In this document: positions 10,441-50,940 of the stretch, piece by piece
Layout of the letters: each line of letters opens with the position of its first letter
Numbering within the stretch: position 1 is the first letter of the stretch
Source: Candidatus Pacearchaeota archaeon
GTDB lineage: Archaea > Nanobdellota > Nanobdellia > Pacearchaeales > GW2011-AR1
Direction: 5' to 3'
Assembly (NCBI GenBank): GCA_018303755.1
Contig: JAGVXO010000007.1
Location: 295-64,294, forward strand
DNA: 64,000 nucleotides
Position numbers and translations under genes: made by a program
Notes under the pieces: model-generated
The model's input: only the letters and a program-made list of their open reading frames with translations
Database searches by the model: none
What the model was told of the DNA's origin: nothing

Positions 10441-10565
10441 ATTGGAATTTATGTATATCACAAAACCCTTTGAGTATACTCCACACTAAAGTGTGGAGTT
10501 TGTGTTTGGGTTTTGGGAGAACCGGGAAAAATCTATACATTTTAACTCCAATCTATGAACAAAGG
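10441..10565 (-). repeat. repeat D (double-hairpin element), copy 3, 5'-truncated
   Basis: reverse complement matches copies 1 and 2 from agattggagttaaaatgtatagatttttcccggttctcccaaaaccc...ctccacactttagtgtggag (perfect 9-bp stem). Confidence 0.75.
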
Positions 10566-10656
10566 TAAAATAAGGAAAAGTTATAGGGTGTTAGAAGAAT
10601 TAAATATCCTTAATCCTTCTAAGAATGTTTAAAAACATCCTTGTCTTTTTGAGGCT

Positions 10657-13963: not shown

Positions 13964-14329
13964 AAAATATAATTAATAAAGAATTTCTTGATTTATAAGT
14001 TTATTGGAATTTAATAAATATTTTCTACTGCATATTATTTTTTATACTCCTACTATTTTTAATTATTTTAATGTTTTGTTGTGATAATGCAAACCTTTTA
14101 AGGAGTTTAAATCACGAAGGATATGATTGCAGGGGATTTGTTTTTTATGGGGGTTCTGCTGAAATCCGTCAGCAGTTTGAATCTGAAATGAGAAAACAAC
14201 TTGCTGGAAGAGAATCAGAATATGTTGTTTTATGCTCTGAAGTCCGTCCATTTGATTACCTTATTAAATGGTTTAATCCTAAGGAACCAAAAAATCCCGG
14301 TGTAATGGGGGTTGATGTTGGTTATTTTA

Positions 14330-15037
14330 TTAAGAATGGCGTTCCGTTGATGAATCATACAGATATCCAGAGAGTCCAAAGATAAACGCTTTTTTCCCTA
14401 TAACTTTTTCCAGTTCTTCTTTTGAGGCATTTATTATATTCTTTATTGAGCCGAAATGCTCGAGAAGCTTTTTTGCATTTTTCGGGCCTATGCCTGGAAA
14501 ACTTTCTATGATATATTGAGTTTGCTCTTTTGGATTTCTTGATTTTCTTTTTAGGTTTGCGCTTTTTTCAGAAGAATTTTCTTTTTTATTGTATAAAACC
14601 TTTATGAATTCTGCTGTATCTTCATAATCTTTTGTGAAAATAATCGGAATTTTTCTTTTTAGCAGAATTGAGAGAATAAAGCCCCTTACTGCATTTTCAT
14701 TTATTCCAGAAGAGTATAAATCTTTTTCATCTGTGCCTTCAATTATCAGAAGCTTTTCTTTGTTTTCATATTGCATAAGAGTATCTAACTGGGATTCCAT
14801 TCTTTTGTTTATCATTGAAGAGAGAAAATCACCGATTGTTTTTCTTTCGATTATTACTTCTTTTACAATATAATCCCCTACTTCAAGATGCACAAAGTTT
14901 ATTTGACATCCTAAGCGCACGAGCTCGCTTGCAACAAGCGCGTTTTTTTCCCTATCATCAATTAGAATTTCCGGTTTATCCAAATCCTGTTCTTCTAGTT
15001 TTCTTTTCTCAGATTTTTCAAATATATTCTCGAACAT
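14330..15037 (-). CDS. XPF/Hef-type ERCC4 nuclease with C-terminal (HhH)2
   Basis: ERCC4 signature IDDREK...ERKTIGDF and a C-terminal FPGIGPKNAKKLLEHFGS helix-hairpin-helix. Confidence 0.7.
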   Translation of the reverse strand: MFENIFEKSEKRKLEEQDLDKPEILIDDREKNALVASELVRLGCQINFVHLEVGDYIVKEVIIERKTIGDFLSSMINKRMESQLDTLMQYENKEKLLIIEGTDEKDLYSSGINENAVRGFILSILLKRKIPIIFTKDYEDTAEFIKVLYNKKENSSEKSANLKRKSRNPKEQTQYIIESFPGIGPKNAKKLLEHFGSIKNIINASKEELEKVIGKKAFIFGLSGYLYDSSTERHS

Positions 15038-15084
15038 TTTTTTAAGAAGGGTTATGCCTTTTTATCTTTAACTGCACTTTTTAT

Positions 15085-15350
15085 TTTTTAAACATCCCCA
15101 TAACTTTTCCTTATTTTACATCTTTTCATTAAAGTTTTCTTTTTTATTTAATATCTCATTAAAAATCATAAAGTCTAATGAACAAATGGACGACAGATTT
15201 GCAGAATTAGATAAGTGAGCGGAGCGAACCAAATTAAGGCGAGCCCGAATGGGCGAGCCGATAATTCCATTATTCAAATAAAAAATCACAACCGAAATAT
15301 TTATAACTCCCCCCCTTAAATTGTTAATCTTGCTTTCATAACGATAAAGC
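15085..15350 (+). repeat. composite intergenic repeat R1 (AT block + GCGAGC block + conserved promoter-like leader)
   Basis: near-identical to 29700-29960 and related to 11+ other copies; contains gtgagcggagcgaaccaaattaaggcgagcccgaatgggcgagc. Confidence 0.8.
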
Positions 15351-15385
15351 AGGAATTTTAAAATTGAGTGAAAGGAGGTGATAAA

Positions 15386-16540
15386 ATGAAAAGCAAAGAA
15401 TGGGTTGGAGTGATTGCTGTTGTTGCAGTTGCGTTTGCAATTGCTTGGGTTTCTGCGAATTTAGATGTTTTAACTAATTCAGGAATACTGCAAAGCCCGC
15501 CTTCTGGTAATGATATAAATGTGACTCCGAGAGAGAATCAGACATATTCCTTTATTATGGGGGGAGATAGGTATGATTATAGATTTGGGATGAATAGTGT
15601 TAAGATTCCATATAGTATTGACTTGTCTATTAATGATCCTTTTGCTCAGGAATCCTTTATGAAAAGATTATCTTTTGCAGGGAATGATACTAATAATTTG
15701 AGTTATGCTTATTTTGGATTCCAAAAGATAATAATAAAGGCAAATCTTGTAAAAGTTCATGATACTTGGGCGAAGAAATGGTTTGTTAATTTAACCTTTA
15801 AAGATGCAACAAATGATCCGAATGCACCTTATACGAAAATTGATGGATGTAATCGTATAGATGAAGTAATCATTGATAAAACTCAGGAGCTTACTGATAA
15901 AGGAAGGATTGTTGTGATAGAAGAAATGAGCCCGGTATATTACGGGAATTACTTTATTGCTCCTGGAGATACTAATGGAACTGACGCAGGGATATATAAA
16001 ATAACTACACTTTCAAACTCTTCTACAGAATTCCATTTAGTGCTTACTGATGTGTTTGACACAGCAAATACTTTTGAGGTTACTGACTCTACTGGAGATG
16101 GAATTGCAAGTATCTATATAATGGGAAAACAATATGAGGTTTACTATGCATTTACTTCCTCAACCCTTCCAATTGAAAGGGCTGTTAAATTTGATTTTTC
16201 GCAAACAATAGGACATCAGATTATGGATTTCAGCAAGTGTGCTAATGCACAAGAGAATTATGTTGGTGTTTTGAAAATGTTGAATGAGTGCGATTTAAGA
16301 TTCGTAGACGATTCTTTTTTTAGAAATCAAACGGCTCACATTTCTTGCGATCAAAAATGCCGAGAATCTGGTCAAGTATGTACTGAAGCATATGGTTATC
16401 TATTTAATGGGACAGATGAAGATTCAGAAGATTTTAGAGTAATAACTACTAGGGTTCTTTGTCAGGCACAGGCTTCATCTTCTGATGTTCTGGGTGGGTA
16501 TCCTTTTTTAGAATTAATGTGCAACTGCTGTGGAGATTAA
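15386..16540 (+). CDS. secreted Cys-rich protein (paralog of 30025..30831 at the 5' end)
   Basis: perfect SD AAGGAGGTGA 4 nt upstream of ATG 15386 (track used GTG 15368); signal peptide ...AFAIAWVSA; C-terminal 9-Cys module. Confidence 0.5.
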   Translation: MKSKEWVGVIAVVAVAFAIAWVSANLDVLTNSGILQSPPSGNDINVTPRENQTYSFIMGGDRYDYRFGMNSVKIPYSIDLSINDPFAQESFMKRLSFAGNDTNNLSYAYFGFQKIIIKANLVKVHDTWAKKWFVNLTFKDATNDPNAPYTKIDGCNRIDEVIIDKTQELTDKGRIVVIEEMSPVYYGNYFIAPGDTNGTDAGIYKITTLSNSSTEFHLVLTDVFDTANTFEVTDSTGDGIASIYIMGKQYEVYYAFTSSTLPIERAVKFDFSQTIGHQIMDFSKCANAQENYVGVLKMLNECDLRFVDDSFFRNQTAHISCDQKCRESGQVCTEAYGYLFNGTDEDSEDFRVITTRVLCQAQASSSDVLGGYPFLELMCNCCGD

Positions 16541-16616
16541 TTAATCTTTAATTTTTATTTTTCTTCTTTTCTTTTTTATTCAATCAGCTTCTGCTGTGCG
16601 TCTTTTTCTCTTTTTT

Positions 16617-19600
16617 TTATATTAATTTTTTTTGTATTTCTTCTTCATCTTTTTTATTTTCGTCTGCGCTTTTTCCTTCACTTTCTATTTCTTCATCCTG
16701 CGCTTTTGCATTAAATGTTCCGTCCTGCATTTCCTGTTTTATTGAGCTTATGGCGTTGTGCATTCTTTTTTCCTTGTGATAAGCGGCCCAGTAATATGCT
16801 TCGTCTCTTGTGTCTTTTGTTATAAGCATTATCAACTCTCCTGGCATTAATCTTGCTGTTCTTCCTGCTCTCTGAATTTTTCTTATTGCGCTTGGAACTG
16901 GCTCGTAAAAAATAACTGTATCAACTTCAGGTATATCAAGCCCCTCTTCTCCTATCTGGGTGCTGACTAAGACATTGAATTTTCCGTCGGAAAAGTCAGA
17001 GATTATTTCTCTTTGCTCTTTTTGGCTTAGTCCTGTATCTCCTTTTTTTGCCTGCCCTACAAAAACTTTTGCACTTGCATTTTCAATCGAATTAATTTCC
17101 TTGCATATTTTTGTCACGCTGTCACGATACTGCGAAAAAACAATTATTTTCGGGTTTTTGATTGAGCTTATTTTTGATTCTATAATTGCTTTTAGCTGAA
17201 GAAGTTTCGGATGCTCTAAATTTTCATTTATCATCTGCTTTATTTTTTCATATGCAATTGTAAAATCAGGATTGCTGACAAGCTTTTTTACAGCTCTGCT
17301 TTTATTCTGCCTTGCCTGTTCATTCAGAGATTCAATATAATTATTTAATCCATAAAGTGTTTGGGTTTCAAGAAGTTCAATTGCATGTCCGATTTTTATT
17401 GCCTGTGCGCATAATGACGCTCCATAGAACAAATTAAAATTTTTACTTCCTCTTGAAATCATAGCCATTATTCTTTTCTGGCAGTCTAACAAAGCGATTT
17501 TGTTTGCGGGCCCATTAAGGATATTTTTTTCTTTAAGCGAATTTATGTTTTTATCATAAATGTTTTTCAAATGAACTTTAATTTCTTTGAATTTTTGCGG
17601 AAATTCCACTTTTATTGTGTTTATGTCAAGTTCCTGCAAATATTCTTTCAAGTCTTCGCTTTCTCGTGTTCTTATTTCAACTTCTTCAATATTCAGATTT
17701 TCACAAATGAGTTTTATTGACTTTTTGTCTGCGCCAGGCGAGGCAGTAAGTCCCAAAATCCTCGCATTTTTCGCCTGCTCGATATACTTTTTCGCAACAT
17801 AAGTGTAGCTGTAATTTTTCACGCATTTATGCGCTTCGTCTTCTATAAGCAGAGAAACTCCTTCTAAATCATATAGTTTTTTCTTTAAATCATTGGCAAT
17901 GCAATTATGGTTTACTAAATAATTTGCTATAAAATTATGGTGTTTATCAACGCTTAAATCATACACTTCTCTTTTTTCTCGACACCCTCTTTTTTCTTTA
18001 ATCTTCACCCACCTTATTGGAAGGTTGAGAAGTTCTTTCAATTTATTGGCACTTTCTCCCTCTAAACAAGAGGATAGCTTTTTTAAATTATCCAAGGACA
18101 GGCAACTAAATTTATAATATTCTGCTTTGCTCATATTAGACTTATGAATTTTTTTCATTAATTCTGGAATAGGCAGTATTTCTTTTGAGCGTGTTTCTGG
18201 TCTTTTTGTATTGTTTAAGGTTTCTATTAGTTTTTTACATTTTTCTTTGTTTGGAGAGGACTCAAGAAATTTTTTTAAATTCAGCCTTCCTGTGAATTTG
18301 AATGTAAAAATTTCAGATTCTTTTAAATGTCTTCCATTTATCGTTCCATGAGATTTTGTTTTTTCAATATTGCCAAGAATGCCTATTCTTAAAAATAGCC
18401 ACTTTAGTCCCTGCACAAATTTTTCGCTTACACTGGATATTGATACTCCGTATTTTGATGCATGGCCATCTGTGTCAAATATTCCTTTGATAAATCCATT
18501 TATAGAATCTTTATCTGCGAAAAATAAAAATTTTGGAATTTCAATTCTTCTTGCTTTTTTTCCTTTTGGGATTCCAAGATGCGAGAAGAAATGTGCGAGA
18601 GCAGAGTTATAAGCAATAAGCCCTTTAGTTTTATCTTTCTTCATTTCAATTCCAAAAACTTCTTTAACTGCCTCTTTAAATTCTTGAGAGATTGATTCTC
18701 TTTCTAATTCTGAGAGGACCACTTCAGACCCATGACCTATCCTATCTCCAATATGTCCATCACCAAACATCGCACCTAAGATATATGCTAATTTATTGTC
18801 TAACTTTTTAGGGAGCTTTATTGGAGAACTTTTTCCGCAGCTATCTGTAAGTGTCAATAAGCTATAATCAAAATCTATTTTTTTTGATAGTTCTAGGAAA
18901 AGTTTTATGGGCATGAAGTTATAAAAATATCTTGAATAAGGCGAGGTTTTAATTTTCTTCTCTTTTAACTTCTTTATTAAGTCTTTTGTAAGAGCAGTAT
19001 CTGCTATTTTTAAACATTCACTCGAAGAGAGGAGATTTAAAATGTCGAGATTTTTTTCTTCTATATCTATCTTCTTTGAAGATGCAATGTAATCTCCTTT
19101 ATTTAGGCTTGACGCTTCCTTCCAAATTAATTCTCCACATGGGCTTATTGTTAAAAGAGGGTGGTCTTTTGTACACAAGAGGGTATTTCCTATTTCGGTT
19201 TTTATATTAATTACTTCTTCGGTTGTCCTTTTCCATGCTTTTGTTGCCTTTAAGAAATCAATTTTTTGCCCATTGTAACCCAGAATTTTTTCATTTATCT
19301 CAGCGACTTCTATTTTTCCATTTAGATAGTTCTTTTCTTCGAAATTAAATTGTTTGAAGAAATCTGAAATTTTTATCGGACCTTCTCCAGTGAATATTAA
19401 TGTTCCGCCATCAATGCACTGCGGAGTTGAAAATATAATGTCTGTTCTCTGCCATATTTTTTTTCTTTTTTCTGCATCAACTTTTCCTGTAAAAAGCTCC
19501 ATTTGAGCAAACAGCTCTGGAAGATATTTTTTAAAATAAGCAATATGCTGTTCTGCGAGCGGGCGTGTTGGAGCAAGAAAAAGAATTTTCTCCTCTGGAA

Positions 19601-19760
19601 ATTTCTGCATCCTATGTATTGTGAGAAGCAATGCAACAAGAGTTTTTCCTATGCCTGTAGGCAGGACTACTAAACAGTTTTTTTCTTTGCATTTTTCAAA
19701 TATCTTTTTTTGATATTCTCTTGGATTTATATCTTTTAAAAATTTCTCTTCTGGCATCAT
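16617..19760 (-). CDS. Hef/RIG-I-like SF2 helicase (nuclease-less) containing one LAGLIDADG intein
   Basis: motifs PTGIGKT, FSTPQ, (intein), EDEAHK, LTASPG, QRAGRTAR; extein about 540 aa plus intein about 505 aa. Confidence 0.8.
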   Translation of the reverse strand: MMPEEKFLKDINPREYQKKIFEKCKEKNCLVVLPTGIGKTLVALLLTIHRMQKFPEEKILFLAPTRPLAEQHIAYFKKYLPELFAQMELFTGKVDAEKRKKIWQRTDIIFSTPQCIDGGTLIFTGEGPIKISDFFKQFNFEEKNYLNGKIEVAEINEKILGYNGQKIDFLKATKAWKRTTEEVINIKTEIGNTLLCTKDHPLLTISPCGELIWKEASSLNKGDYIASSKKIDIEEKNLDILNLLSSSECLKIADTALTKDLIKKLKEKKIKTSPYSRYFYNFMPIKLFLELSKKIDFDYSLLTLTDSCGKSSPIKLPKKLDNKLAYILGAMFGDGHIGDRIGHGSEVVLSELERESISQEFKEAVKEVFGIEMKKDKTKGLIAYNSALAHFFSHLGIPKGKKARRIEIPKFLFFADKDSINGFIKGIFDTDGHASKYGVSISSVSEKFVQGLKWLFLRIGILGNIEKTKSHGTINGRHLKESEIFTFKFTGRLNLKKFLESSPNKEKCKKLIETLNNTKRPETRSKEILPIPELMKKIHKSNMSKAEYYKFSCLSLDNLKKLSSCLEGESANKLKELLNLPIRWVKIKEKRGCREKREVYDLSVDKHHNFIANYLVNHNCIANDLKKKLYDLEGVSLLIEDEAHKCVKNYSYTYVAKKYIEQAKNARILGLTASPGADKKSIKLICENLNIEEVEIRTRESEDLKEYLQELDINTIKVEFPQKFKEIKVHLKNIYDKNINSLKEKNILNGPANKIALLDCQKRIMAMISRGSKNFNLFYGASLCAQAIKIGHAIELLETQTLYGLNNYIESLNEQARQNKSRAVKKLVSNPDFTIAYEKIKQMINENLEHPKLLQLKAIIESKISSIKNPKIIVFSQYRDSVTKICKEINSIENASAKVFVGQAKKGDTGLSQKEQREIISDFSDGKFNVLVSTQIGEEGLDIPEVDTVIFYEPVPSAIRKIQRAGRTARLMPGELIMLITKDTRDEAYYWAAYHKEKRMHNAISSIKQEMQDGTFNAKAQDEEIESEGKSADENKKDEEEIQKKLI
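17904..19418 (-). other. intein in helicase (between FSTPQ and CIANDL)
   Basis: starts with Cys (CIDGGTL), ends HN followed by +1 Cys; internal LAGLIDADG blocks (LAYILGAMFGDGH, DKDSINGFIKGIFDTDGH). Confidence 0.75.
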
Positions 19761-20887: not shown

Positions 20888-21409
20888 ATGGCTTTTGAAA
20901 CAATTCTAATGCACGCTTTTGCAGTTCAGATAATTTATCCTTTTTTGCTTATTTTTACATTGGTTTTTGCAATTCTTCAGAAATCAAAAATTTTAGGAGA
21001 TGAGAAGAAACAGATTGATGCGCTTGTAGCTTTTTCAATTGCATTAATCACTGTTGCTTTTTCATGGGCAACAAACATTATTACTTCCTTAATGCCTTTT
21101 CTTGCAGTTTCAGTTGTTATACTTTTAGTATTCATGATTCTTTATGGTTTTGTTGGAAGCACTTCTGAAAAAGAATTTTCTCTGCCTAAACGCGTTCAGG
21201 TTGGAATTGTGATTATTGCAGGAATTGCATTGATAATTGCTGTTCTTGTTGCAACAGGACAATGGGATAAAGTTCATAATGCCTTGTTTATTAATGGCAA
21301 TCCAACGAATTTATTTTCAAATGTTCTTCTTATTGCGATTATTGCGGGTGCTTTGATTATTGTGGTAATGCCGTTTAAAAGTTCTGGCGGAAAAAAGAAG
21401 GACGAATAA
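20888..21409 (+). CDS. 4-TM membrane protein, paralog family M (member 1)
   Basis: shares the YPFLLIFTLVFAILQKSKILG... pattern with 21810 and 22368. Confidence 0.45.
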   Translation: MAFETILMHAFAVQIIYPFLLIFTLVFAILQKSKILGDEKKQIDALVAFSIALITVAFSWATNIITSLMPFLAVSVVILLVFMILYGFVGSTSEKEFSLPKRVQVGIVIIAGIALIIAVLVATGQWDKVHNALFINGNPTNLFSNVLLIAIIAGALIIVVMPFKSSGGKKKDE

Positions 21410-21534
21410 TCTTCTTTTGCGATCATCCAATAATCTTGCCTTATTTTAAGTTTGTTCATGGGCGTTTTTTATTTTTAATATAAATGAATCTTATTCAAAT
21501 TTATAAAAGAAATAGATTGCCTTTGTATGAATGT

Positions 21535-21725
21535 ATGGCGGATTAGCAGATTTGAAGAAAAATAAATATGAGTGAGCAGAGCGAACCAAATTAAGGCGAG
21601 CCCGAATGGGCGAGCATATTACTTATTTTGCTAACACCCTCCATACTTTTTTCCACATTTTACCTCTTTTCATTAAATTTTTTTTATTTAATATTTCATT
21701 AAAAATATAACTTCTAATAAACAAG
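21535..21725 (+). repeat. composite intergenic repeat R1
   Basis: gagtgagcagagcgaaccaaattaaggcgagcccgaatgggcgagc followed by tattttgctaacaccc...ttttcattaaa...ttatttaatat block. Confidence 0.75.
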
Positions 21726-21809
21726 TGGATTAAGAATTTAAGAAATGCCTTTTAAATACCTTTTAGAAAGGTATTTAAATAATGCTGGTTTTTTATTGGG
21801 GTTATTAAA

Positions 21810-22352
21810 ATGGGGCAATCAATAGGAACAATTCTTCAGCAGTGGGAGCAATTAGGGATATTTTATTATGCACTTCCTTTTCTTTTAATATTTGCGCTTG
21901 TATTTGCTGTTTTGCAGAAAGTAAAATTAATGGGCGGAGATGACGATAGGGCAAGAGGAGTTAATGCAATAATTGCTCTTGCTGTTGCACTAATGGCTTT
22001 GCAGTATAATAAAGTGCCAATATTTTTTCAGGTGATATTTCCTAAATTAGGAATTGCAATTTCAATACTTCTTGTTGCAATTATCCTTGTCGGGCTTTTT
22101 GTTGATTTTTCAAAGCACGAAGGCGCGGCAGTTATATTCTTTGGAATCGGAGGAGTTTCATTTATAGTAATTTTGTTGAGCTCTTTTGAAGATTATTCTT
22201 GGTGGAGTGGAGGCTGGTGGTATAATAATATGTCTGCTATAATTGCGGGAATTATTTTATTAGTTTTTGTAATGGTGATAATAAATTCAGGAAAAGTAAG
22301 AGAGAAAGGGACTCCTAACTGGCTTTTTAAACCGATTTCCGGAGGACATTGA
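21810..22352 (+). CDS. 4-TM membrane protein, paralog family M (member 2)
   Basis: LPFLLIFALVFAVLQKVKLMG...; tandem paralog. Confidence 0.45.
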   Translation: MGQSIGTILQQWEQLGIFYYALPFLLIFALVFAVLQKVKLMGGDDDRARGVNAIIALAVALMALQYNKVPIFFQVIFPKLGIAISILLVAIILVGLFVDFSKHEGAAVIFFGIGGVSFIVILLSSFEDYSWWSGGWWYNNMSAIIAGIILLVFVMVIINSGKVREKGTPNWLFKPISGGH

Positions 22353-22367: not shown

Positions 22368-22892
22368 ATGGCAGCAGCAGTTGATATTTCGTGGCTTGCA
22401 TATTTTATGCCGATAGTCGGCTTCTTTTTTGTATTTATTGTAATGTATGCAATTTTGGCAAAGACAAAATTATTAGGAGAGTCAAATTTTGTTAATTTGT
22501 TTTTATCATTTATTTTTGCAACGATTTTCGTGACTTTTTCTCCAGGAGTTGATTATGTTACAACAATCACCCCCTGGTTTGTGATATTAATTATTTCCCT
22601 TTTATTTGTTATGATGATAATCGGCTTTTCACAGAAAGAAATTGACAAGATGATGAAGCCGGGATTTTCATGGTTTTTTATTGTGGTTCTTGGAATTATA
22701 TTTTTAATATCTGCAATTAATGTTTTTCATCCAATACTCGCGCCTTATCTTCCTGGAGCATCTGACAGCGGAGGAGAAGACACTCTTTTATCTCTGAAGC
22801 ATTTTGTTTATTCTTCCAGATTCTTGGGGGCTGCGCTTCTGCTTATAATCGGCGCCTTGGCTTCGTGGATTATAACGAAAGGGAAGAAATAG
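22368..22892 (+). CDS. 4-TM membrane protein, paralog family M (member 3)
   Basis: GFFFVFIVMYAILAKTKLLG...; tandem paralog. Confidence 0.45.
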   Translation: MAAAVDISWLAYFMPIVGFFFVFIVMYAILAKTKLLGESNFVNLFLSFIFATIFVTFSPGVDYVTTITPWFVILIISLLFVMMIIGFSQKEIDKMMKPGFSWFFIVVLGIIFLISAINVFHPILAPYLPGASDSGGEDTLLSLKHFVYSSRFLGAALLLIIGALASWIITKGKK

Positions 22893-25796: not shown

Positions 25797-25925
25797 AATA
25801 CTCGTGAAAAATCTCCAATCTTTAGATTGGAGTTAAAGTGTATAGATTTTTCCCGGTTCTCCCAAAACCCAAACACAAACTTCACACTTTAGTGTAGAGT
25901 ATCCTCAAATGGTTTTGTGATTAAA
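25797..25925 (+). repeat. repeat D (125-bp double-hairpin element), copy 1
   Basis: about 95% identical to 45017-45140; hairpins ctccaatctttagattggag and cttcacactttagtgtagag. Confidence 0.8.
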
Positions 25926-26023
25926 CAGATATTAAATAAGAGAAAGTTATTAGATGTTAGAGAATAAGCTACTTTAATCATATTTAGCATCACAGAAAAC
26001 TATTTTAATCGTCTTTTGGTTTT

Positions 26024-28285
26024 ATGGTTATGTTATTTAAAAAAGGGGCTGTGCTTTATTCATATGAAGTTCAGAGAGAGTCAGGAGAGAATGTTATTTA
26101 TGTAAACTATCTTGGAGCGCCTGATATTCCAAGCATCGCAAAATCTCCTGAAGTTATGACAAGAGCAATTGATTTATTTATTGAATCTCCTAATGCTTCG
26201 AGATTAGTATTAGTCCAGCAGAGAAATTACAGCTATAATTCAGAGCAGGTTGAAATGCTTGTTGAAATTGCACAATTATATACTTTTCTTTTAAAGCAGG
26301 AAAGAGTGCTTTCTCCAGAAATGTTGTCAAGTAATCCAAGGGAGTTATCATCAAGATATGCTTTTATGAATTATTTTATGACTATTTTAAGACAGAACCC
26401 ATTTTTAGCATACAGAAAGATTAAAAATGCCTTAATTGAAGAAAAATCAAAGAGTGGGCACGATATTCTTTACATTGGGCTTCTTGAAAAAATTGTTTCA
26501 TTACTCTTAAAAACAAAACTTATTTTAAAAATAGAAAAATATGCAGAGGATTATGCTTTTGAAAGCAGGGAAATATACGAAAAACTTTTTTCTCCAAATA
26601 TAATCCCTAATTATGCTTTTGCAAGGCTTGCTTCTGAGCTTCCGGAAAATGCGAAAATAATATCGCAATATGCTATTGGAAGTGGAGATGATAAAAGCAC
26701 AGTAACTATCTTAAAAAAAGAAAATGAATTAAAATATATTTATCATTTAATGCCTCCTGAATATTTTCTTAATGAGGATTTTCAGATGCTTCTTAATCTT
26801 GCGAGAAATGTTCTTATAGAGCACCAGCCAAAGGCAGAAGAGTTTACAGATACTGAAAGAACAAGGCAGGTTTTTTTTAATGTTGCGCGCGATTTATTGA
26901 GGGAGCTTGCAGAAGAAAAACATATAACTTTTTCTTATGAAGAGCTTGGCAAACTCGCGATGATTCTTGTAAGACATACAATTGGCTTTGGCTTGTTAGA
27001 GGTTCTTTTGCAGGACAGTAATTTGCAGGATATTGTTCTTAATGCTCCGATAAGCATGAATACAATTTTTGTAAGGCATGGAAAATATGATGAGTGTTCT
27101 ACGAATATTATTCTTAGCCAGGAAGATGGAGAATCGTGGGCCGCGAAATTCAGAATGATTTCAGGAAGGCCGCTTGATGAGGCAAATCCTGTTCTCGATA
27201 CTGATTTATTGATTGAAGGCGCGAGAGCAAGAGTTTCAATTGTGCAGAGGCCTTTATCTCCTCACGGACTTGCATATGCTGTAAGAAGACACAGAGATTA
27301 TCCTTGGACACTTCCTTTGTTTATTGAAAATAAAATGCTTAATCCATTTACTGCTGGATTATTAAGTTTTCTTATTGATGGGAGCAGGACACTTCTTGTG
27401 GCAGGAACAAGAAGCTCTGGAAAAACTTCGCTTCTTGGAGCTTTAATGCTTGAAATAAAACCAAAATATAGAATTATCCTTATAGAAGATACTCTTGAAA
27501 TTCCTGCAGATTATTTGAGAAAAATGGGTTATGATATTTTAAGTATGAAGGTGCGTTCTTCGCTGACTGAAACAAGCAACGAAGTTACAGCAGAAGAGGG
27601 AATAAGAACAAGTTTGAGATTAGGAGACAGCTCTTTAATTGTCGGCGAGATAAGAAGCAATGAAGCAAAAGCATTATATGAGGCAATGAGAGTAGGAGCA
27701 CTTGCAAATGTTGTTGCAGGAACGGTTCATGGAAACTCTCCTTATGGTGTTTTTGACAGAATTGTAAATGATTTGCAAGTTCCGATTACAAGTTTTAAAG
27801 CAACTGATTTAGTTCTTGTTGCAAATCCTGTTAAAAGTCCTGATGGATTACATTCTGCGAGGAGAGTTGTTCAATTAACAGAGGTAAGAAAGCACTGGAC
27901 AAAAGATCCTCTTGAAGAAAAAGGATTTGTTGATTTGGTTAATTATAATGTTGAGAAAGATGAATTAGAGCCGAGTGATGAATTGATTAACGGGAATTCT
28001 GAAGTTATAAAAGCAATTGCTTCAGGAGTTAAGGGATGGGCAGGAAACTGGGATGCTGTTTATGATAATATTATTTTAAGAGGGATGGTTAAACAGGAGC
28101 AGGTTGAATTAGCACATAGGTTGAACAGGCCAGAACTACTTGAGGCAAATTTTTCCCTTCTTGCAAATACTTTATTTCATAACATTTCTGAAGAAGTTAC
28201 AAAAGAGTTAGGATTTCCTGATTCCAAGATTGTTTTTCCTAAATGGAAAAAGGACGTTGAGAAACTTGCGCAGGATTTTTCTTAA
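26024..28285 (+). CDS. type IV pilus/archaellum-type secretion ATPase (GspE/FlaI/PilB family)
   Basis: Walker A VAGTRSSGKTS, Walker B IILIEDTLEI, downstream Asp/His boxes; large N-terminal domain. Confidence 0.75.
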   Translation: MVMLFKKGAVLYSYEVQRESGENVIYVNYLGAPDIPSIAKSPEVMTRAIDLFIESPNASRLVLVQQRNYSYNSEQVEMLVEIAQLYTFLLKQERVLSPEMLSSNPRELSSRYAFMNYFMTILRQNPFLAYRKIKNALIEEKSKSGHDILYIGLLEKIVSLLLKTKLILKIEKYAEDYAFESREIYEKLFSPNIIPNYAFARLASELPENAKIISQYAIGSGDDKSTVTILKKENELKYIYHLMPPEYFLNEDFQMLLNLARNVLIEHQPKAEEFTDTERTRQVFFNVARDLLRELAEEKHITFSYEELGKLAMILVRHTIGFGLLEVLLQDSNLQDIVLNAPISMNTIFVRHGKYDECSTNIILSQEDGESWAAKFRMISGRPLDEANPVLDTDLLIEGARARVSIVQRPLSPHGLAYAVRRHRDYPWTLPLFIENKMLNPFTAGLLSFLIDGSRTLLVAGTRSSGKTSLLGALMLEIKPKYRIILIEDTLEIPADYLRKMGYDILSMKVRSSLTETSNEVTAEEGIRTSLRLGDSSLIVGEIRSNEAKALYEAMRVGALANVVAGTVHGNSPYGVFDRIVNDLQVPITSFKATDLVLVANPVKSPDGLHSARRVVQLTEVRKHWTKDPLEEKGFVDLVNYNVEKDELEPSDELINGNSEVIKAIASGVKGWAGNWDAVYDNIILRGMVKQEQVELAHRLNRPELLEANFSLLANTLFHNISEEVTKELGFPDSKIVFPKWKKDVEKLAQDFS

Positions 28286-28292
28286 ATCTTAT

Positions 28293-28470
28293 TTTTAAAC
28301 ATCCCATAATTTTGCCTTATTTTTACATCTTTTCATTGAAGTCTTCTTTTTTATTTAATATCCCATTAAAAATCATAAAGTCTAATGAACAAATAGACGA
28401 CAGATTTGCAGAATAAAACAAGCGCGAAGCGCACTAATGTCGTTATTAATGTGAGCGAGCGAAAGATTTA
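28293..28470 (+). repeat. composite intergenic repeat R1
   Basis: aaacatcccataattttgccttatttttacatcttttcat...gacagatttgcagaataaaacaagcgcgaagcgcac...gtgagcgagcgaaag. Confidence 0.75.
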
Positions 28471-28489: not shown

Positions 28490-29095
28490 ATGATAAGGTG
28501 TATAAATATGTATGAAAATAAATATAAAAATGAGCCTCTTACGAGATTAGAAGATTTAGATATTCTTTTAAATCTTTTGGCAGATTTAAATGAGCCGTTG
28601 GAATTGTTTGCAATAGGAGGAACTGCAATGGTTTTAAAAAGAATTAAAGAATCTACAAAGGATATAGATTTTTTGACTGCTGAAAAATATGAGAAAATTA
28701 AAAAGCTATTTACTTTAGCAGGTTTAAAAGAAGAAAGTTCTAATAAACTTTGTAACATTTGGAAATTAGGCAATATTCGGATAGATATTTTTTATGATGG
28801 TTTTATTATGGGCATAAGATTTCCTGATGATTGGAGAAAGTTATCTGAAAAAGTAAAAGAAATTGGAAAAATTAAGCTATATATTCTTAATTGGTATGAT
28901 TTGATTATCACGAAAATTTCAAGGGCTGAGAAAAGAGATATTGAAGATATAATTGCAATAATAAAAAGCCAAAAGTTAGATTTTGGTTTTTTGAAAAAGA
29001 GATATTATTCTTTTGCCGAAACTGCACTTATTTCAGATTTTGATTATAAATTTAAACATTTGGAAAGGGAATATGCCAAGCGCAAAATTGATTAA
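28490..29095 (+). CDS. nucleotidyltransferase, paralog N2
   Basis: LFAIGGTAMVLK...DIDFLT NTase motif; same architecture as 23625 and 43554. Confidence 0.5.
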   Translation: MIRCINMYENKYKNEPLTRLEDLDILLNLLADLNEPLELFAIGGTAMVLKRIKESTKDIDFLTAEKYEKIKKLFTLAGLKEESSNKLCNIWKLGNIRIDIFYDGFIMGIRFPDDWRKLSEKVKEIGKIKLYILNWYDLIITKISRAEKRDIEDIIAIIKSQKLDFGFLKKRYYSFAETALISDFDYKFKHLEREYAKRKID

Positions 29096-29693
29096 GGCAC
29101 TTGAAAAAGAAGGCTTTTTTTTGGAGTTTCCAGAATATTATTCAAATGAAGAAATTGTTTTTGAGATATTAAAGGAGGACAATCCGAGAATAACTCTCTG
29201 CCTGCCGCTTTTTTTAAGAAAAGGAATAGATTACAAAACGATTTCCTCGAAATTAAATCCCAAAAAGAAAAAAGAATTAAATAGGGCAATTGCTATCAGT
29301 GATAAAATCTACAAAAAAGAAAAAATTGAGAATACTCTTTCAGGCATTATAAAACAAAATAGAATAAAAGTAAACTTCTCAGAACAGGAATTCAAAGAGT
29401 TTTATGATTCTTTTAAAGAGAGTCGAGCAAGATTAAAAGAAAATGAACAAAAAATTATTGAAAAGCAGTCTAAACTGCGGCTTAATCTTGATTTAAACAA
29501 ATGCATGTCTGTTTTATTTTCTCCAGCAAAGATAAAAATAATGGAGAAAATATTCAATCATAAACTGCTTACGAATACAGAATTAAAGTATTATTATAAA
29601 TCCATTTCAAATATAAACAAGGCAGTTTTAAATCCAAATTTGCAGGATTATTTAAGGATAATTGAGATTACGAAGAAGATTGCGGAGAAATGA
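29013..29693 (+). CDS. hypothetical protein, downstream partner of NTase N2
   Basis: overlaps the NTase gene 3' end; Lys-rich helical protein. Confidence 0.3.
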   Translation: MPKLHLFQILIINLNIWKGNMPSAKLIKALEKEGFFLEFPEYYSNEEIVFEILKEDNPRITLCLPLFLRKGIDYKTISSKLNPKKKKELNRAIAISDKIYKKEKIENTLSGIIKQNRIKVNFSEQEFKEFYDSFKESRARLKENEQKIIEKQSKLRLNLDLNKCMSVLFSPAKIKIMEKIFNHKLLTNTELKYYYKSISNINKAVLNPNLQDYLRIIEITKKIAEK

Positions 29694-29699
29694 GCGAGC

Positions 29700-29960
29700 T
29701 AAATTAATTATTCTAACATCCTATAATTTTGCCTTATTTTAAGTTTGTTCATTGGTGCTTTTTATTTATTGATTTAAAACATAATGTAAATTCCAATCTG
29801 CTCACGGGTTTAGGATTTACAAAATAAATAAGTGAGCGAAGCGAACCAAAATTGTGGGGCGAGCCCGCAGGGCGAGCCGATAATTCCATTATTCAAATAA
29901 AAAATCACAACCGAAATATTTATAACTCCCCCCCCCTTGGATTGTTAATCTTTCAATAAG
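29700..29960 (+). repeat. composite intergenic repeat R1 with promoter-like leader (9-C tract)
   Basis: taagtgagcgaagcgaaccaaaattgtggggcgagcccgcagggcgagccgataattccattattcaaataaaaaatcacaaccgaaatatttataactccccccccc. Confidence 0.8.
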
Positions 29961-30024
29961 TTTTTAACACGAAAAAGAAAGATTGAACTAAAATAAAAAA
30001 TAGTGATTGAAAGGAGGTGATAAA

Positions 30025-30831
30025 ATGAATAGAAATTTAGTGATTGGACTTTCTGTTACTTTAGTTGCTGTTTTAATTGCAGGAAGCTTGAGCGGATGGT
30101 TTGGATTGACTGGAAACGTAATTTGGGGAAGTTCTCCCTATGCTGATAAGATTGCAAAATTAGGGAAAACATATACTCTAAATTTAGAAGGGAGTAGTCA
30201 TACATTTTTAGTTACCGATTATCAGAGAGAAAATTCTACTTCTGTAGGGTTTATCTGGTTAAATGTGGATGGAGAACTAAAAAAGGTAAGTTATGGGACA
30301 TCTGCTGTTAGATTTTGGGATAATATTGACGTGCAGATTTTACAGTTTTACAATTGGGCAGGAAGTTTTGTTCAAATAAGGTTTTTTTATCTTTACCCTG
30401 AATATACTGATATGAATGATTGTAGGTGGGAATATAATACTTATGATAATGAGTATCTCCCAGAATCTCGGGCGGTAATTTGCAGATATGGTGAAGAAGT
30501 ATTAGTCTCAACCGAATTTGTCACTTGTGATACTCCAAGGTTGGTTGAAACATGGAACTATTGGTGGCCTGGATTTAAAGGTGCACCAACCTTTGGAAGA
30601 GGGTATACTTGTTATGACTCTTCTTCAAATACTGTTTTTAAGCCAGGGTATGTATCTGGAGTATGTTGTAAAGTAAGAAGTACAAATGGATCTCCAGGAG
30701 TAATCTCTTCATTGAAGTCTGGTGCTGAAAATGGAGAAATCTTGGCAAAGGTAAATCAATTGACTTCAGATAATAAAATAATAGAAAGAGATTTAACTTC
30801 TGAAGAAATAGAAGTGACTTTATCTGCTTAA
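30025..30831 (+). CDS. secreted protein (5' paralog of 15386..16540)
   Basis: identical SD and leader; N-terminal hydrophobic signal; Cys, Trp and Tyr-rich. Confidence 0.45.
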   Translation: MNRNLVIGLSVTLVAVLIAGSLSGWFGLTGNVIWGSSPYADKIAKLGKTYTLNLEGSSHTFLVTDYQRENSTSVGFIWLNVDGELKKVSYGTSAVRFWDNIDVQILQFYNWAGSFVQIRFFYLYPEYTDMNDCRWEYNTYDNEYLPESRAVICRYGEEVLVSTEFVTCDTPRLVETWNYWWPGFKGAPTFGRGYTCYDSSSNTVFKPGYVSGVCCKVRSTNGSPGVISSLKSGAENGEILAKVNQLTSDNKIIERDLTSEEIEVTLSA

Positions 30832-30913: not shown

Positions 30914-33130
30914 GTGAAAGAGGGAATAATGGCGGATGTTAATGAGATTTTAAAAAAGTATGGGGGCAAGCTTTCAGAGGGGATTAATGAAGAGTATAAA
31001 TCCGGGGATATAAGCAAAGAGTATATACATTTCAAACAGGATATGATGCCACAGCTTTCAAGATATGAAAAGCTTGCAAAGACGTTTTCTCTTTTAAAAC
31101 TTAAAATGGGAAAAAAGAGCGAGGAGAGAATGAAGAAAAATCTTGATTCTGCGCATCTTGACTTGACTCCTTCTGATGTTGCGACTTTTTCTTTTTTTTC
31201 TGCAGTAATGGTTTTTATGCTCGGACTTGTAATTTATGTTGTTGTTTATATGAATACAGATGAACTTTCTGGCGCAAATGGATTATTTTTAGCGCTTATG
31301 TTTATTGCATCTCTTTTTGTTTTTTATTTTGTATATACCTCTCCTGAAAGAATGGCGAATATGTGGAGATTAAAAGCTGGTTCGCAAATGGTGCCGTGCA
31401 TACTTTATATTGTAGTTTATATGAAGCACACTTCAAATTTGGAAAGAGCAATACATTTTGCATCTCAGAATTTAAAAGCGCCTCTTTCGCTTGATTTGAA
31501 AAAGATTTTCTGGGATGTGGAAACTGGGAGATTCAGCACAATAAAAGAGAGTTTGGATAATTATCTTAAAACATGGGAAAAATACAGCATTGAATTTGTC
31601 GAGGCATTTCATCTTATTGAGAGCAGTTTGTATGAGTCGTCTGAATTAAGAAGAATTCAGATACTTGAAAAATCACTGCAGGTGATTCTTGACGGGGTTT
31701 ATGAAAAGATGCAGTCCTTTTCACGAGAAGTCCGCGGACCTTTGACAAATGTTTATATGCTGGGAGTTGTTCTGCCGACACTTGCGCTTGCACTTCTTCC
31801 TCTTGCTTCGACACTTTTAGGAGGAGTTATAAAAGTTTATCATGTGTTTATACTTTTCAATCTTATTGTTCCTTTTCTTGTGTTTTATATGACTAACAGC
31901 ATTATGCTTAAGCGTCCAGGAGGACATGGAGAGAGCGAGATTTTAGAAATGAATCCTGACTATCCTAAATATAAAAGCAAAAAACCATATTTTATTGCAG
32001 CATTATTTGCAGTTCCATTATTAATTATTGGCTTGATGCCATTGTTTTTTCAATGGGCTTGGTTTGTGCAGACATTTAATCTTGCTCCTGATTATAATCT
32101 TGGAGTTTTAGGCGGGAATTTTGAAGGAGCAGTTATGTTTGATTATAAAAATGCTGATTTAAGTTCTGGAAGCTCGATAATGACACTTGCAGAGCTTAAT
32201 TCTGCAAAAAATATTGCAGGGCCTTTTGGAATTGGCGCGCTTATTCTAAGCTTGTTTGTTCCTCTTTCTGTATGCCTTTTTTTTGCTATTTCTTTTTCTA
32301 TTAAAACAAAAGAGATGATAAAGGCAAGAAAAAATACACAGGAGCTTGAGAAAGAATTTACAAACTCGCTTTTTCAGCTTGGAAACAGGATTGGCGACGG
32401 GCTTCCTGCTGAAGTTGCATTTGCAAGAGTTGCAGAATCAACACGCGGACAGAGAACAGCAGAATTTTTTAGAAAGGTGAATCTTAATCTTCAGCAGTCA
32501 GGAATGTCACTTGAAAACTCTATTTTTCATCCGCGCAATGGGGCAATAATCTTCTTTCCATCACAGCTTATTGCTACGAGTATGAAAATTCTTGTTGAAT
32601 CAGTCAAGAAAGGGCTGAAAATTGCAGCACAGAGTTTAATGAGTATTTCAGAATATCTGAAAAATATAAATAAAGTTGAAGACAGGATGAAGGATTTGCT
32701 TGCAGAGGTTACAAGTGATATGAAAAGCAATATGGTATTTTTGGCGCCTCTTCTTGCAGGAATTGTTGTCGGACTTGCTGGTATGATTACTTCTATAATA
32801 AACAAACTGACTCTTCTAATAGATTCTATGGCTTCTGGACAGGAGATTCCCGGATTTGGAAATATTTCAAATATTGTAAATCTCTTTGAAATAACTAAAA
32901 TGGTTCCGCCTTATTATCTGCAGATTGCAATAGGAATTTATCTTATCGAGATTATTTTTATTCTTACAAAGGTTCTTGTTACAATTGATTCAGGAGAGGA
33001 CAAGTTAAGCACAACAAACAGAATTGGAAAGAATCTTTACACGGGATTATTCCTTTATTTTGTTGTGACTCTTGCAGCAGTCATTACTCTTTATATTCTT
33101 GCAACTGTTTCTTTGGGCGCGATTGGGTGA
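30914..33130 (+). CDS. type IV pilus platform membrane protein (FlaJ/TadC/GspF-like)
   Basis: 738 aa, multiple TM helices in two clusters separated by cytoplasmic domains; immediately downstream of the ATPase locus. Confidence 0.55.
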   Translation: MKEGIMADVNEILKKYGGKLSEGINEEYKSGDISKEYIHFKQDMMPQLSRYEKLAKTFSLLKLKMGKKSEERMKKNLDSAHLDLTPSDVATFSFFSAVMVFMLGLVIYVVVYMNTDELSGANGLFLALMFIASLFVFYFVYTSPERMANMWRLKAGSQMVPCILYIVVYMKHTSNLERAIHFASQNLKAPLSLDLKKIFWDVETGRFSTIKESLDNYLKTWEKYSIEFVEAFHLIESSLYESSELRRIQILEKSLQVILDGVYEKMQSFSREVRGPLTNVYMLGVVLPTLALALLPLASTLLGGVIKVYHVFILFNLIVPFLVFYMTNSIMLKRPGGHGESEILEMNPDYPKYKSKKPYFIAALFAVPLLIIGLMPLFFQWAWFVQTFNLAPDYNLGVLGGNFEGAVMFDYKNADLSSGSSIMTLAELNSAKNIAGPFGIGALILSLFVPLSVCLFFAISFSIKTKEMIKARKNTQELEKEFTNSLFQLGNRIGDGLPAEVAFARVAESTRGQRTAEFFRKVNLNLQQSGMSLENSIFHPRNGAIIFFPSQLIATSMKILVESVKKGLKIAAQSLMSISEYLKNINKVEDRMKDLLAEVTSDMKSNMVFLAPLLAGIVVGLAGMITSIINKLTLLIDSMASGQEIPGFGNISNIVNLFEITKMVPPYYLQIAIGIYLIEIIFILTKVLVTIDSGEDKLSTTNRIGKNLYTGLFLYFVVTLAAVITLYILATVSLGAIG

Positions 33131-33139: not shown

Positions 33140-33545
33140 TTATTTTCTTTAAACACACTATAACTTTTCCTTATTTAACATCTTTTCATCTCACTTTTTT
33201 CTTAATATTATTAAAACAATCCAAAGGACAAATGTATCAATGGAGTCAGATTTGCAGAATAAAATAGGCGAGGCGAAGCCGAGCACAATATTTATTTTGT
33301 TAATATCCAATAATTTTCCCACATTTTACATCTTTTTAATTGCCTTTTTATTTTTTTAATTAGATTTTGATTTAATGCATTTAAACTTTATAAAAACCAA
33401 TGTATCAACGGATTAGGGGTTAGCAGAATAAAACGCGCGCCCGCAGGCGCGCGTTATCTCTCTATTAAACGAGCGAGGCGGAGCCGAGCGAAAATCGTGG
33501 GGTCGCAGGGCGAGCGAACCGAAGGTGAGCGAGCCGTTATACTCT
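33140..33545 (+). repeat. composite intergenic repeat R1, about 2 tandem units, with a perfect GC hairpin
   Basis: two A-blocks (33148-, 33300-) and GC blocks (33265-33290; 33430-33540); hairpin gcgcgcc-cgca-ggcgcgc at 33435-33452. Confidence 0.75.
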
Positions 33546-45016: not shown

Positions 45017-45140
45017 ACTCGTGAAAAATCTCCAATCTTTAGATTGGAGTTAAAATGTATAGATTTTTCCCGGTTATCCCAAAACCCAAGCACAAACCCC
45101 ACACTTTAGTGTGGAGTATACTCAAAGGGTTTTGTGATTT
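45017..45140 (+). repeat. repeat D (double-hairpin element), copy 2
   Basis: perfect 9-bp stem ctccaatct-tt-agattggag (45030-45049) and ccccacact-tt-agtgtggag (45097-45116). Confidence 0.8.
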
Positions 45141-45333
45141 TATACAAAGCTCTGTAATCTCCAATTCGATAACGAAATATTTTATCAGAGTTTTCCCTGC
45201 CAATAAATTTTGCATCACTTGGTATAGGTTCTTGTTTCAACCTTTCAATTCTTTTGATTATCCTTTCAGTTACATGCAAATCAAGATTTTTTAAGAATTT
45301 TTTTGGTTGAGCTGCGAATTCAATAGAAAACAT
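45106..45333 (-). CDS. RelE/ParE-family toxin (apparently orphan)
   Basis: ...DKIFRYRIGDYRALYKI... matches the RelE/ParE core; no antitoxin ORF upstream; 3' end overlaps repeat D. Confidence 0.55.
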   Translation of the reverse strand: MFSIEFAAQPKKFLKNLDLHVTERIIKRIERLKQEPIPSDAKFIGRENSDKIFRYRIGDYRALYKITKPFEYTPH

Positions 45334-50439: not shown

Positions 50440-50940
50440 TTTTGGGCGTTTTTGGTTTTATCAATCAAAGATTTTCAAATGAATCAATGTACTTGCAAGT
50501 AGAGCGCAATATTTATTTTGCTAACATACCATAACTTTCCATTATTTTAAGTTTGTTCATTGGTGCTTTTTTTAATATCTCTCAGTTAAATCTCAGAAGA
50601 ACAAATGAATCAATTGGCGTAAGATTTGAGAAATAGATAAGTGAGTGAAGCGAACCAAAATAAAGCGAGCCCGAAGGGCGAGCGATTGCACGAGCTAAAA
50701 AAAGTTGATACAATGAGTGCAATCGTGAGCAGAGCACAATATTTATTTTATTAACATCCCATTCTTTTTACTTATTTTAAGTTTGTTCATGGGTGTTTTT
50801 TATTTAAGGCATGTAAATTTCAATCTGCTCATGGAAAAGGATTAGCAGAATAAAATAAGCGCGAAGCGCGAACCATTAATTGCACTTATGGCGAGCCCGC
50901 AGGCGAGCGAGTTTGCTTTTATTAGAAAAGTGCGAAATGT
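50440..50940 (+). repeat. composite intergenic repeat R1, about 2 tandem units between divergent genes
   Basis: two A/C blocks (ttattttaagtttgttcat at about 50545 and 50778) and GC blocks (50640-50700; 50855-50920). Confidence 0.75.

Follow-up and report, generated by a model that had tools for sequence, protein, structure and literature searches.

A predicted promoter module beside a dispersed intergenic repeat precedes two accessory secreted-protein genes in a Pacearchaeota genome

Surface genes that combine a common 5′ expression region with differing mature parts are known from several mycoplasmas. According to the introduction of one paper, the promoter of the vlp genes of Mycoplasma hyorhinis contains a homopolymer tract that varies in length, and the same paper describes the 5′ untranslated region (UTR) and the signal-peptide coding region as conserved in vsp of M. 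bovis and vpma of M. agalactiae (PMC2268961). Here we analyse two genes that resemble these systems at first sight, genes A and B, in a window of 64,000 nucleotides (nt) from Candidatus Pacearchaeota, an uncultivated DPANN archaeon (about 32% G+C; contig JAGVXO010000007.1). The window is the whole stretch of DNA that was analysed, and positions are those of the window unless a contig is named. The original prediction for this DNA had assigned the pair to a contingency or variant surface-protein family, with a conserved expression module and diversified exposed domains.

Two further kinds of system bear on the pair. Neisseria Correia elements, enterobacterial repetitive intergenic consensus (ERIC) and repetitive extragenic palindromic (REP) sequences and archaeal miniature inverted-repeat transposable elements (MITEs) are dispersed intergenic repeats; they bring promoters with them and serve as substrates for recombination. 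S-layer genes are an example of highly expressed archaeal surface genes with leadered mRNAs that depend on a Shine-Dalgarno (SD) sequence. The genomes of DPANN archaea are small, and these organisms are believed to rely on contact with host cells, which makes the gain and expression of their surface proteins a matter of interest.

We found that A and B are preceded by the same stretch of DNA, which we read as a promoter module and which is fused to one end of a repeat scattered through the intergenic regions of the window. Our favoured explanation, which we hold to be probable, is that recombination among repeat copies carried this module from one locus to the other, or made its two copies alike, so that it came to serve two accessory surface genes. 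The features that carry this reading are the following, with open reading frame abbreviated as ORF, amino acids as aa, and the transcription factor B recognition element as BRE:

15386 to 16540, + strand: gene A, an ORF of 384 aa (NCBI MBS3099776.1, locus tag J4463_00995, hypothetical protein).
30025 to 30831, + strand: gene B, an ORF of 268 aa (NCBI MBS3099790.1, locus tag J4463_01065, hypothetical protein).
15196 to 15331, + strand: shared block, A copy, with 88.7% identity to 29814-29952 over 141 aligned columns.
29814 to 29952, + strand: shared block, B copy, with BRE/TATA at 29911-29926 and poly-C9 at 29928-29936.
15292 to 15315, + strand: predicted core promoter of A, with a BRE-like CCGAAA (15292-15297), the TATA box TTTATAAC (15300-15307) and poly-C7 (15309-15315).
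15369 to 15390, + strand: extended SD/start block of A, the 22-mer TGAAAGGAGGTGATAAAATGAA, with the SD at 15374-15382 and the ATG at 15386.
30008 to 30029, + strand: extended SD/start block of B, the same 22-mer TGAAAGGAGGTGATAAAATGAA, with the SD at 30013-30021 and the ATG at 30025.

The two genes, 14.6 kb apart, had been described as having about 130 bp of essentially identical upstream DNA. The near-identity stands, but the shared DNA consists of two separate blocks and not of one continuous stretch. The first block is 136 nt long at A and 139 nt at B, with 9 mismatches and 5 gaps between the copies (89% identity), and contains a core of 65 nt that is 100% identical (15251-15315 and 29870-29934). 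A 49-mer from this core has two matches in the window compared to none in 100 shuffles. The second block is the 22-mer around the SD and the start codon, which likewise has two window matches and none in 100 shuffles; the same SD had been predicted for both genes. Between the two blocks the middle of the 5′ UTR (37 nt in A, 55 nt in B) aligns poorly, so that this part of the upstream region differs.

On the coding side, identity falls abruptly from 100% to background after ATGAA, at codon 2. Both proteins do start with an N-terminal signal or anchor, as predicted, but the signal-peptide coding region is not conserved. The 3′ flanks of the two genes have T-richness alone in common, which rules out a cassette with both ends conserved.

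Within the A copy of the first block, the order is module B of the repeat (described below), an upstream block, BRE/TATA, poly-C and the sequence up to the predicted transcription start site (TSS). The 5′ part, GTGAGCGRAGCGAACC...GGCGAGCCCG..GGGCGAGCC, corresponds to module B, at which the repeat ends in a GC hairpin. The promoter part (15260-15331) is found in the window only at A and B.

Most of the first-in-operon genes in the window are leaderless, and in these the motif TTTATAAA begins 29-30 nt 5′ of the ATG (for example at 12612, 19777, 41990, 49536, 50969 and 57834). The sequence CCGAAATATTTATAAC at A and B agrees with the BRE/TATA of these leaderless genes. Both copies read CCGAAA-TA-TTTATAAC (15292-15307 and 29911-29926), followed by C7 in A or C9 in B and then by TT(AA/GG)ATTGTTAATCTT. 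Applying the 29-30 nt spacing of the leaderless genes as the distance from TATA to TSS, we predict transcription to start at about 15329 for A and about 29948 for B, which would leave 5′ UTRs of about 57 and about 77 nt. The conservation between A and B ends exactly where this spacing places the TSS. Because of this coincidence and the fit with the leaderless genes, we read the shared block as a BRE/TATA promoter.

The 3′ end of the UTR carries the 14-nt sequence TGAAAGGAGGTGAT, which includes the perfect 9-nt SD GGAGGTGAT and is followed by AAA and then by ATGAA. Among 76 ORFs of the window, A and B alone have the perfect 9-nt SD. Mechanical ORF calls start both genes 18 nt early, at GTG 15368 (A) and TTG 30007 (B), and give them the identical spurious N-terminus MKGGDK, which is the translated SD; a Joint Genome Institute (JGI) call, P0022, uses MKGGDK.

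The predicted BRE/TATA, the long 5′ UTR and the strong SD before a Sec-signal protein, in a window whose other genes are mostly leaderless, recall the S-layer type of mRNA. The proteins differ from it: A and B have no Pfam match, are unlike known S-layer proteins, and are accessory and absent from relatives.

The repeat to which the module is fused is about 190 nt long. With about 18 nhmmer matches in the 64 kb, all of them intergenic, it occurs about once in 3.6 kb. It is composed of module A, AACATCCCCATAACTTTTCCTTATTTTACATCTTTTCAT, with the consensus AACATCCCATAAyTTTyCCTTATTTTA(CATC/AGTT)TkTTCAT, and module B, GATTTGCAGAAT..GTGAGCGGAGCGAACC..GGCGAGCCCGAATGGGCGAGCC. Three dimers lie in tandem (21402-21746, 33140-33517 and 50502-50911). 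Among informative co-oriented gene pairs, module B points toward the downstream start in five and otherwise in two, from which we derive no rule of orientation. The copies at the A and B loci, and a gene cassette between two of them, are:

15071 to 15261, + strand: repeat copy 5′ of gene A (nhmmer E = 4e-53; repeat families D1, D2, D5, D7, D8).
28285 to 28463, + strand: repeat copy directly after an ATPase gene, forming the left boundary of the cassette (nhmmer E = 2e-39).
28490 to 29693, + strand: two-gene cassette of a DUF6036 nucleotidyltransferase and a 206-aa partner, toxin-antitoxin-like (Pfam DUF6036 1.5e-19).
29694 to 29880, + strand: repeat copy 5′ of gene B, of the module A subtype with AAGTTTGTTCATTGGTG (nhmmer E = 8e-46).

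The original prediction had proposed looking for recombination breakpoints at the repeats, and two were found. First, the region upstream of A is pieced together, as a mosaic, from two repeat copies that lie at the B locus: its left part (15081-15207) matches the copy after the ATPase gene (28289-28414) with 93% identity, its right part (15196-15331) matches the copy before B (29814-29952) with 89% identity, and the switch point lies at the conserved GATTTGCAGAAT box. Second, the DUF6036 cassette (28490-29693), which is present in the window and in most assemblies, is absent from haplotype L007 from groundwater. The junction in L007 (2676-2746 of that contig) joins the two flanking repeat copies into a hybrid, and they overlap by 70 nt within module A. 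Recombination between these repeats therefore does occur in the population, and the cassette polymorphism has the look of direct repeats undergoing ordinary homologous recombination.

On this reading, the unit copied would be the module and not the genes themselves: the upstream block, BRE/TATA, poly-C and sequence to the TSS, fused to the GC-hairpin end of the repeat, would have moved by homologous recombination or gene conversion among repeat copies. The mosaic would suggest that the copying went out from the B locus. The expected outcome would be a leadered mRNA with a 14-nt extended SD in a mostly leaderless genome, and strong, probably co-regulated expression of A and B. One promoter module would then serve two unrelated-looking accessory surface genes, each lying inside a conserved gene pair, and the predicted conserved expression module before two different secreted proteins is borne out. 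As we see it, the finding is repeat-mediated promoter spread before accessory genes, which is of a known type, and no new mechanism is established.

Several points weigh against this explanation. The promoter and its strength are predictions from the nucleotide sequence. The identical SD may reflect maximal complementarity to the 16S 3′ end (candidate tail AUCACCUCCUUUCA) instead of duplication. In line with this, ATGAAAGGAGGT also lies 5′ of genes from other organisms that are remotely homologous to A (P0006, P0010 and P0013), and GAAAGGAGGT precedes start codons in related contigs 6 times compared to an expectation that we estimate at about 1.7, so that the SD block is probably generic and no mark of duplication. 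The 5′ UTRs and the shared block fold no better than shuffles (z from -1.3 to +0.5), which also rules out a conserved leader structure. The promoter core has no match in genome, metagenome and viral contig collections, which evidently lack this organism. Finally, the cysteine framework of protein B fits the family of protein A, which leaves an old whole-gene duplication with later promoter homogenisation as an alternative, discussed below.

The repeat resembles Correia, ERIC and MITE elements in being short, non-coding and densely intergenic (at least 18 copies in 64 kb), in lying beside promoters, and in its subtypes, tandem dimers and structural polymorphism. It differs in having neither terminal inverted repeats nor a consensus RNA fold, and the A/B promoter lies outside the repeat consensus, at only 2 of the approximately 18 copies. 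In four copies compared, no consistent terminal inverted repeat was found at the ends; all that they contain of this sort is a TTGTTCAT/ATGAACAA pair in the interior, besides short GC hairpins.

RNAalifold on 14 copies gave no consensus fold, which rules out a structured RNA gene. Searches of Rfam were empty both for the whole window at the gathering threshold and for two intergenic regions in E-value mode, as were the tRNA scans. A small ORF antisense to module A (MKRCKIRKSYGDV or similar) was rejected as peptide-coding, since the frame is not kept between copies. In 938 kb of related Pacearchaeota DNA no copy of the repeat was found; the weak blastn matches that module A has in relatives are due to chance in AT-rich sequence.

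The arrangement has also something of an integron. A recurring non-coding element flanks gene-sized units (the DUF6036 pair, A and B), and haplotypes or species differ in whether they have these units. There is, however, no integrase nearby and no attC-like imperfect palindrome, and the 70-nt overlap in L007 corresponds to ordinary homologous recombination. A Pacearchaeota genome dense with an undescribed intergenic repeat, whose recombination adds or removes a cassette in natural populations, offers material for studying repeat-driven plasticity, and the module may be of use in annotating promoters and in telling leadered from leaderless genes.

Both genes sit inside gene pairs that are conserved in relatives. 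The neighbours are:

14330 to 15037, - strand: XPF/ERCC4-(HhH)2 nuclease (Pfam ERCC4 5e-22, HHH_5).
16617 to 19760, - strand: Hef-type helicase with a LAGLIDADG intein (Pfam DEAD, Helicase_C, Intein_splicing, LAGLIDADG_3).
26024 to 28285, + strand: T2SSE-family (type IV filament) ATPase, 753 aa (PF00437 on record).
30929 to 33130, + strand: polytopic membrane protein, 733 aa, the conserved partner 3′ of the ATPase.

The closest public relatives of the XPF nuclease and the ATPase come from metagenome-assembled genomes of Pacearchaeota and Woesearchaeota, at 50-74% aa identity; for the ATPase, 481 relatives were found. At 63-74% aa identity in the ATPase, relatives are too divergent in their DNA to serve as empty-site comparisons for the repeat, and the sole same-species variant, L007, is a recombinant of two repeat copies. 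As predicted, gene A lies between a helicase and an XPF gene that are normally adjacent. In six related genomes the Hef helicase is directly 5′ of XPF on the same strand, with anything from an overlap to a gap of about 120 nt between them. In the window, the two genes are parted by gene A together with its repeat (15038-16616), which lie antisense to both. No homologue of A lies between helicase and XPF in the six relatives, and the 23 contigs read include no case from the same species of an XPF locus without A.

At the B locus, 58 related contigs have the ATPase and the 733-aa membrane gene in co-linear arrangement, with 74 to 4598 nt between them. The interval is below 200 nt in about half of these contigs, and in the others it holds unrelated cargo: toxin-antitoxin pairs, membrane proteins and secreted proteins rich in Cys. 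No cargo in the 58 contigs resembles A or B; the survey of relatives for further family copies found no homologue at either position. Because the conserved pairs abut in relatives that lack A or B, both genes are lineage-specific insertions. The junction of ATPase and membrane gene is a recurrent variable slot in Pacearchaeota, occupied here by B.

As side observations, the cargo of this slot (contigs L020-L099) includes VapBC/AbrB-like pairs, RelE-like genes and PAP2-like membrane proteins, and in L065 a very Cys-rich secreted protein with 40 Cys in 298 aa. The placement of B in a pilus locus had been predicted as well, and B does lie inside a type-IV-filament (T2SSE ATPase) locus. The label is reasonable given the PF00437 ATPase, its conserved polytopic partner and the small proteins encoded downstream, whose N-termini are class-III-signal-like (e.g. 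KKAQ, RAQ, KRAN) and which have no Pfam match.

The proteins themselves are composed as follows:

Protein A: signal/anchor MKSKEWVGVIAVVAVAFAIAWVSA|NL; mid domain at aa ~147-286; C-terminal Cys domain at aa ~284-384, ending in CNCC.
Protein B: signal/anchor MNRNLVIGLSVTLVAVLIAGSLSG; predicted beta-rich body; six Cys between 133 and 215, ending in CCKV; acidic tail of 53 aa.

In both N-termini a hydrophobic helix (residues 3-31 in A and 3-22 in B in the AlphaFold2 models) comes after a short charged stretch. The peptides are not alignably similar, and the N-termini are analogous only. By inspection, neither has a prepilin motif [KR][GA] before the hydrophobic segment (A MKSKE-WVGVI, B MNRN-LVIGL). 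AlphaFold2 without an alignment gave mean confidence scores (pLDDT) of 40 and 38, and these models are unusable for a comparison of folds.

A richness in Cys, Trp and Tyr had been claimed for both proteins. Among the 66 window ORFs of at least 100 aa, Cys is moderately frequent in both (2.6% and rank 9 in A, 2.2% and rank 14 in B, median 0.77%) and Tyr reaches 4.9% in A (rank 14) and 6.0% in B (rank 4). Trp is abundant in B (3.4%, rank 3), and the term is wrong for A (1.0%, rank 24). Apart from a 27-nt unit in two copies in the tail of B, the mature parts contain no tandem repeats.

Word-indexed homologue searches matched A and B each to itself only. An exhaustive phmmer search of 1.84e9 representatives returned 18 remote homologues of A at E of at most 1e-3, the best examples being P0004 (1.7e-16, mid domain) and P0006 (1.1e-9, C-terminal domain). 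The mid domain of A recurs, at times repeated, in large signal-peptide proteins, and its C-terminal Cys domain is common to the small proteins P0006 and P0010 and to P0013. These relatives have no informative Pfam annotation. A belongs to a sparse family of secreted archaeal proteins for which there is no Pfam model. B is an orphan by sequence in a search of 5.8e9 proteins.

The wording "diverge in the body" in the original prediction implies common descent, which sequence methods do not show. In its developed form, this alternative holds that A and B are ancient paralogues: gene and promoter were duplicated together, the coding parts diverged by diversifying selection, and the promoter was kept or re-homogenised. 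We regard it as unlikely, though the strongest of the competing explanations. The two proteins have the same architecture, with an N-terminal signal or anchor, a predicted beta-rich body in each and a Cys cluster ending in CC. The family of A has a Cys framework in its C-terminal domain of the form C-x17-19-C-...-C-x25-27-C-x13-21-(CxCC or CC), and the spacing in B (19/14/27/17/0) is close to that in P0013 (19/7/27/13/0), with CCKV at the end of both. In a MAFFT alignment all six Cys of B, the only ones it has, fall in conserved Cys columns. The chance of such a match is about 1.5e-5 under a uniform null with ranges set post hoc. The motif LTGNVI after the helix of B also recurs as NLTGNVI or NITGNTI in P0006 and P0010.

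Set against this, a direct BLASTP of A with B gives a best E of 1.4, and phmmer, profile hidden Markov model (HMM) and hhalign comparisons of B with the A family are all empty. The search with the C-domain profile returned P0010 only, and with the C-domain HMM 819 of 5000 shuffles score at least as high as the B Cys region, so that the profile score is no better than that of shuffles. Nothing in B corresponds to the mid domain of A. The abrupt loss of DNA identity at codon 2 and the 3′ flanks, alike in T-richness only, are also unfavourable to a duplication of whole genes. The Cys spacing is the sole hint of common descent; it is a real but unproven hint that A and B may have a disulfide-rich C-terminal module in common.

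The contingency system of the original prediction, taken here in a phase-variable form in which a hypermutable poly-C tract in the conserved module would switch variant surface proteins as in Mycoplasma vlp/vsp, we consider improbable. Its attraction is the tract itself. A poly-C run lies between TATA and the predicted TSS in both genes, and the 32% G+C window has no other C run of at least 7. Its length differs between the genes (C7 in A, C9 in B) and among eight assemblies of B, with C9 in five (window, L006, L007, L009 and L010), C8 in two (L005 and L118) and AC7 in one (L008). Over 6.8 kb, L005 has no differences other than the tract change and a +T next to it. Some assemblies also have a frameshifted B. 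In L118 (1501-2307), where the tract is C8, B is split into two ORFs by +T and -A indels 24 nt apart (at about 30413-30440 of the window), and P0024 and P0026-P0029 are fragments similar to this split B. Furthermore the products are surface or secreted proteins, and DPANN archaea are thought to be attached to hosts.

However, the A tract is C7 in all five complete copies. Length calls of C8-9 are error-prone in short-read assemblies, and the paired compensating indels near the B tract look like consensus errors; a disrupted B is either a strain-level pseudogene or such an error. The variant ORF of 209 aa in L110 had been considered as another cargo gene and is gene B interrupted by a scaffold gap.

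Archaeal promoters start transcription at a fixed distance from the TATA box. A change of 1-2 nt 3′ of TATA would accordingly be expected to shift the start and not to abolish initiation.

The variation expected of a contingency family is likewise missing from the proteins. Only two copies were seen in the window, the exact A protein recurs on 27 contigs and the exact B protein on 20, and the 90% clusters, with 3 and 8 members, are nearly free of variants, holding start-codon variants, one A variant with a single substitution and mostly fragments. The signal-peptide region is not conserved, and the mature regions lack tandem repeats other than the 27-nt unit in the B tail.

The likeness to vlp, vsp and vpma is thus limited to surface genes with a common 5′ expression region and differing mature parts and, here, a promoter with a homopolymer. 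The mycoplasma families are many-membered, clustered, internally repetitive and clonally variable, whereas the genes here are two, dispersed, and invariant on 20-27 contigs. Unlike in vsp and vpma, the 5′ UTR differs for the most part, and the match does not extend past codon 2. The promoter here is archaeal BRE/TATA with the tract 3′ of TATA, not in a -35/-10 spacer. As tested, the A/B pair lacks features that define these families, namely a conserved 5′ UTR and signal-peptide coding region and several clustered, variable paralogues. Nothing shows an antigenic-variation system, and what is present is modest repeat-driven genome plasticity.

A related and bolder idea, to which we give slightly less credit still, is that repeat and module together form a repeat-bounded cassette system. 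Recombination would move a portable high-expression module to the front of different accessory surface-protein genes, and poly-C slippage would tune or switch their expression, an archaeal case of promoter-tract phase variation. In a review, the question of how phase-variable loci are distributed among archaea is treated as one that awaits exploration (PMC11868660).

Finally, an assembly or collapse artefact, named from the start as the alternative, can be dismissed as vanishingly improbable: contigs do break in the shared region (L004 at 15217, L106 at 15315, L107 at 15311 and L010 at 29795), but both loci recur with the same unique flanks in 23+23 contigs read, both full junctions are reproduced at 99.5-100% identity in many independent assemblies from several samples and several assemblers (IDBA-type scaffolds, MEGAHIT k141, SPAdes NODE and JGI), and the 9 mismatches and 5 gaps between the copies are not expected from a collapse.

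We made some further observations on the neighbourhood of gene A. The Hef helicase and a protein of 1332 aa (57834-61832, + strand) are similar only in intein-like sequence. Helicases of relatives are intein-free with 527-529 aa (L011, L014), and that of L012 has 1033 aa, with the extra length positioned elsewhere than the intein of the window. The ORF at 14071-14385 encodes 104 aa in the window and 124 aa in other assemblies, and a 59-nt indel lies at its start (window 14073 compared to 1628-1688 in L001/L002).

The most interesting by-product of the analysis is a second repeat of about 123 nt, unrelated to the ~190-nt repeat and with three helices. In the window it lies at 25806-25928 (+ strand), 45023-45145 (+ strand) and 10450-10571 (- strand), two of these copies being nested in copies of the ~190-nt repeat. 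Elsewhere it occurs in L066 (4264-4384), L078 (10996-11113), L039 (9324-9433 and 13459-13582), L035 (11146-11270), L055 (9304-9428) and L096 (6596-6707). A covariance model from five copies gave 21 matches in the window and other Pacearchaeota contigs. In it, 96.6% of cells are paired, compared to 35-47% when the partners are slid, and 24 of 27 pairs show compensatory changes. The repeat has no Rfam match. We take it for a MITE rich in hairpins or else for a structured small RNA that has not been described. At 300 nt 3′ of the copy at 45023-45145 there is a split IS630/Tc1-like transposase (45444-45926 and 46090-46437, + strand) with HTH_32/HTH_33 followed by DDE_3, which may be the autonomous partner of the second repeat.

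The window also contains genuine local paralogues. Three signal-peptide proteins with 22-40% identity and no Pfam match are encoded at 48633-49451 (- strand), 49536-50399 (- strand) and 50969-51784 (+ strand), the last directly 3′ of the ~190-nt repeat dimer at 50502-50911. Unlike A and B, this trio is a true local family of secreted paralogues. Three small membrane proteins with 33-37% identity are encoded at 20888-21409, 21810-22352 and 22368-22892 (+ strand), and the first of these genes is parted from the other two by the repeat tandem at 21402-21746.

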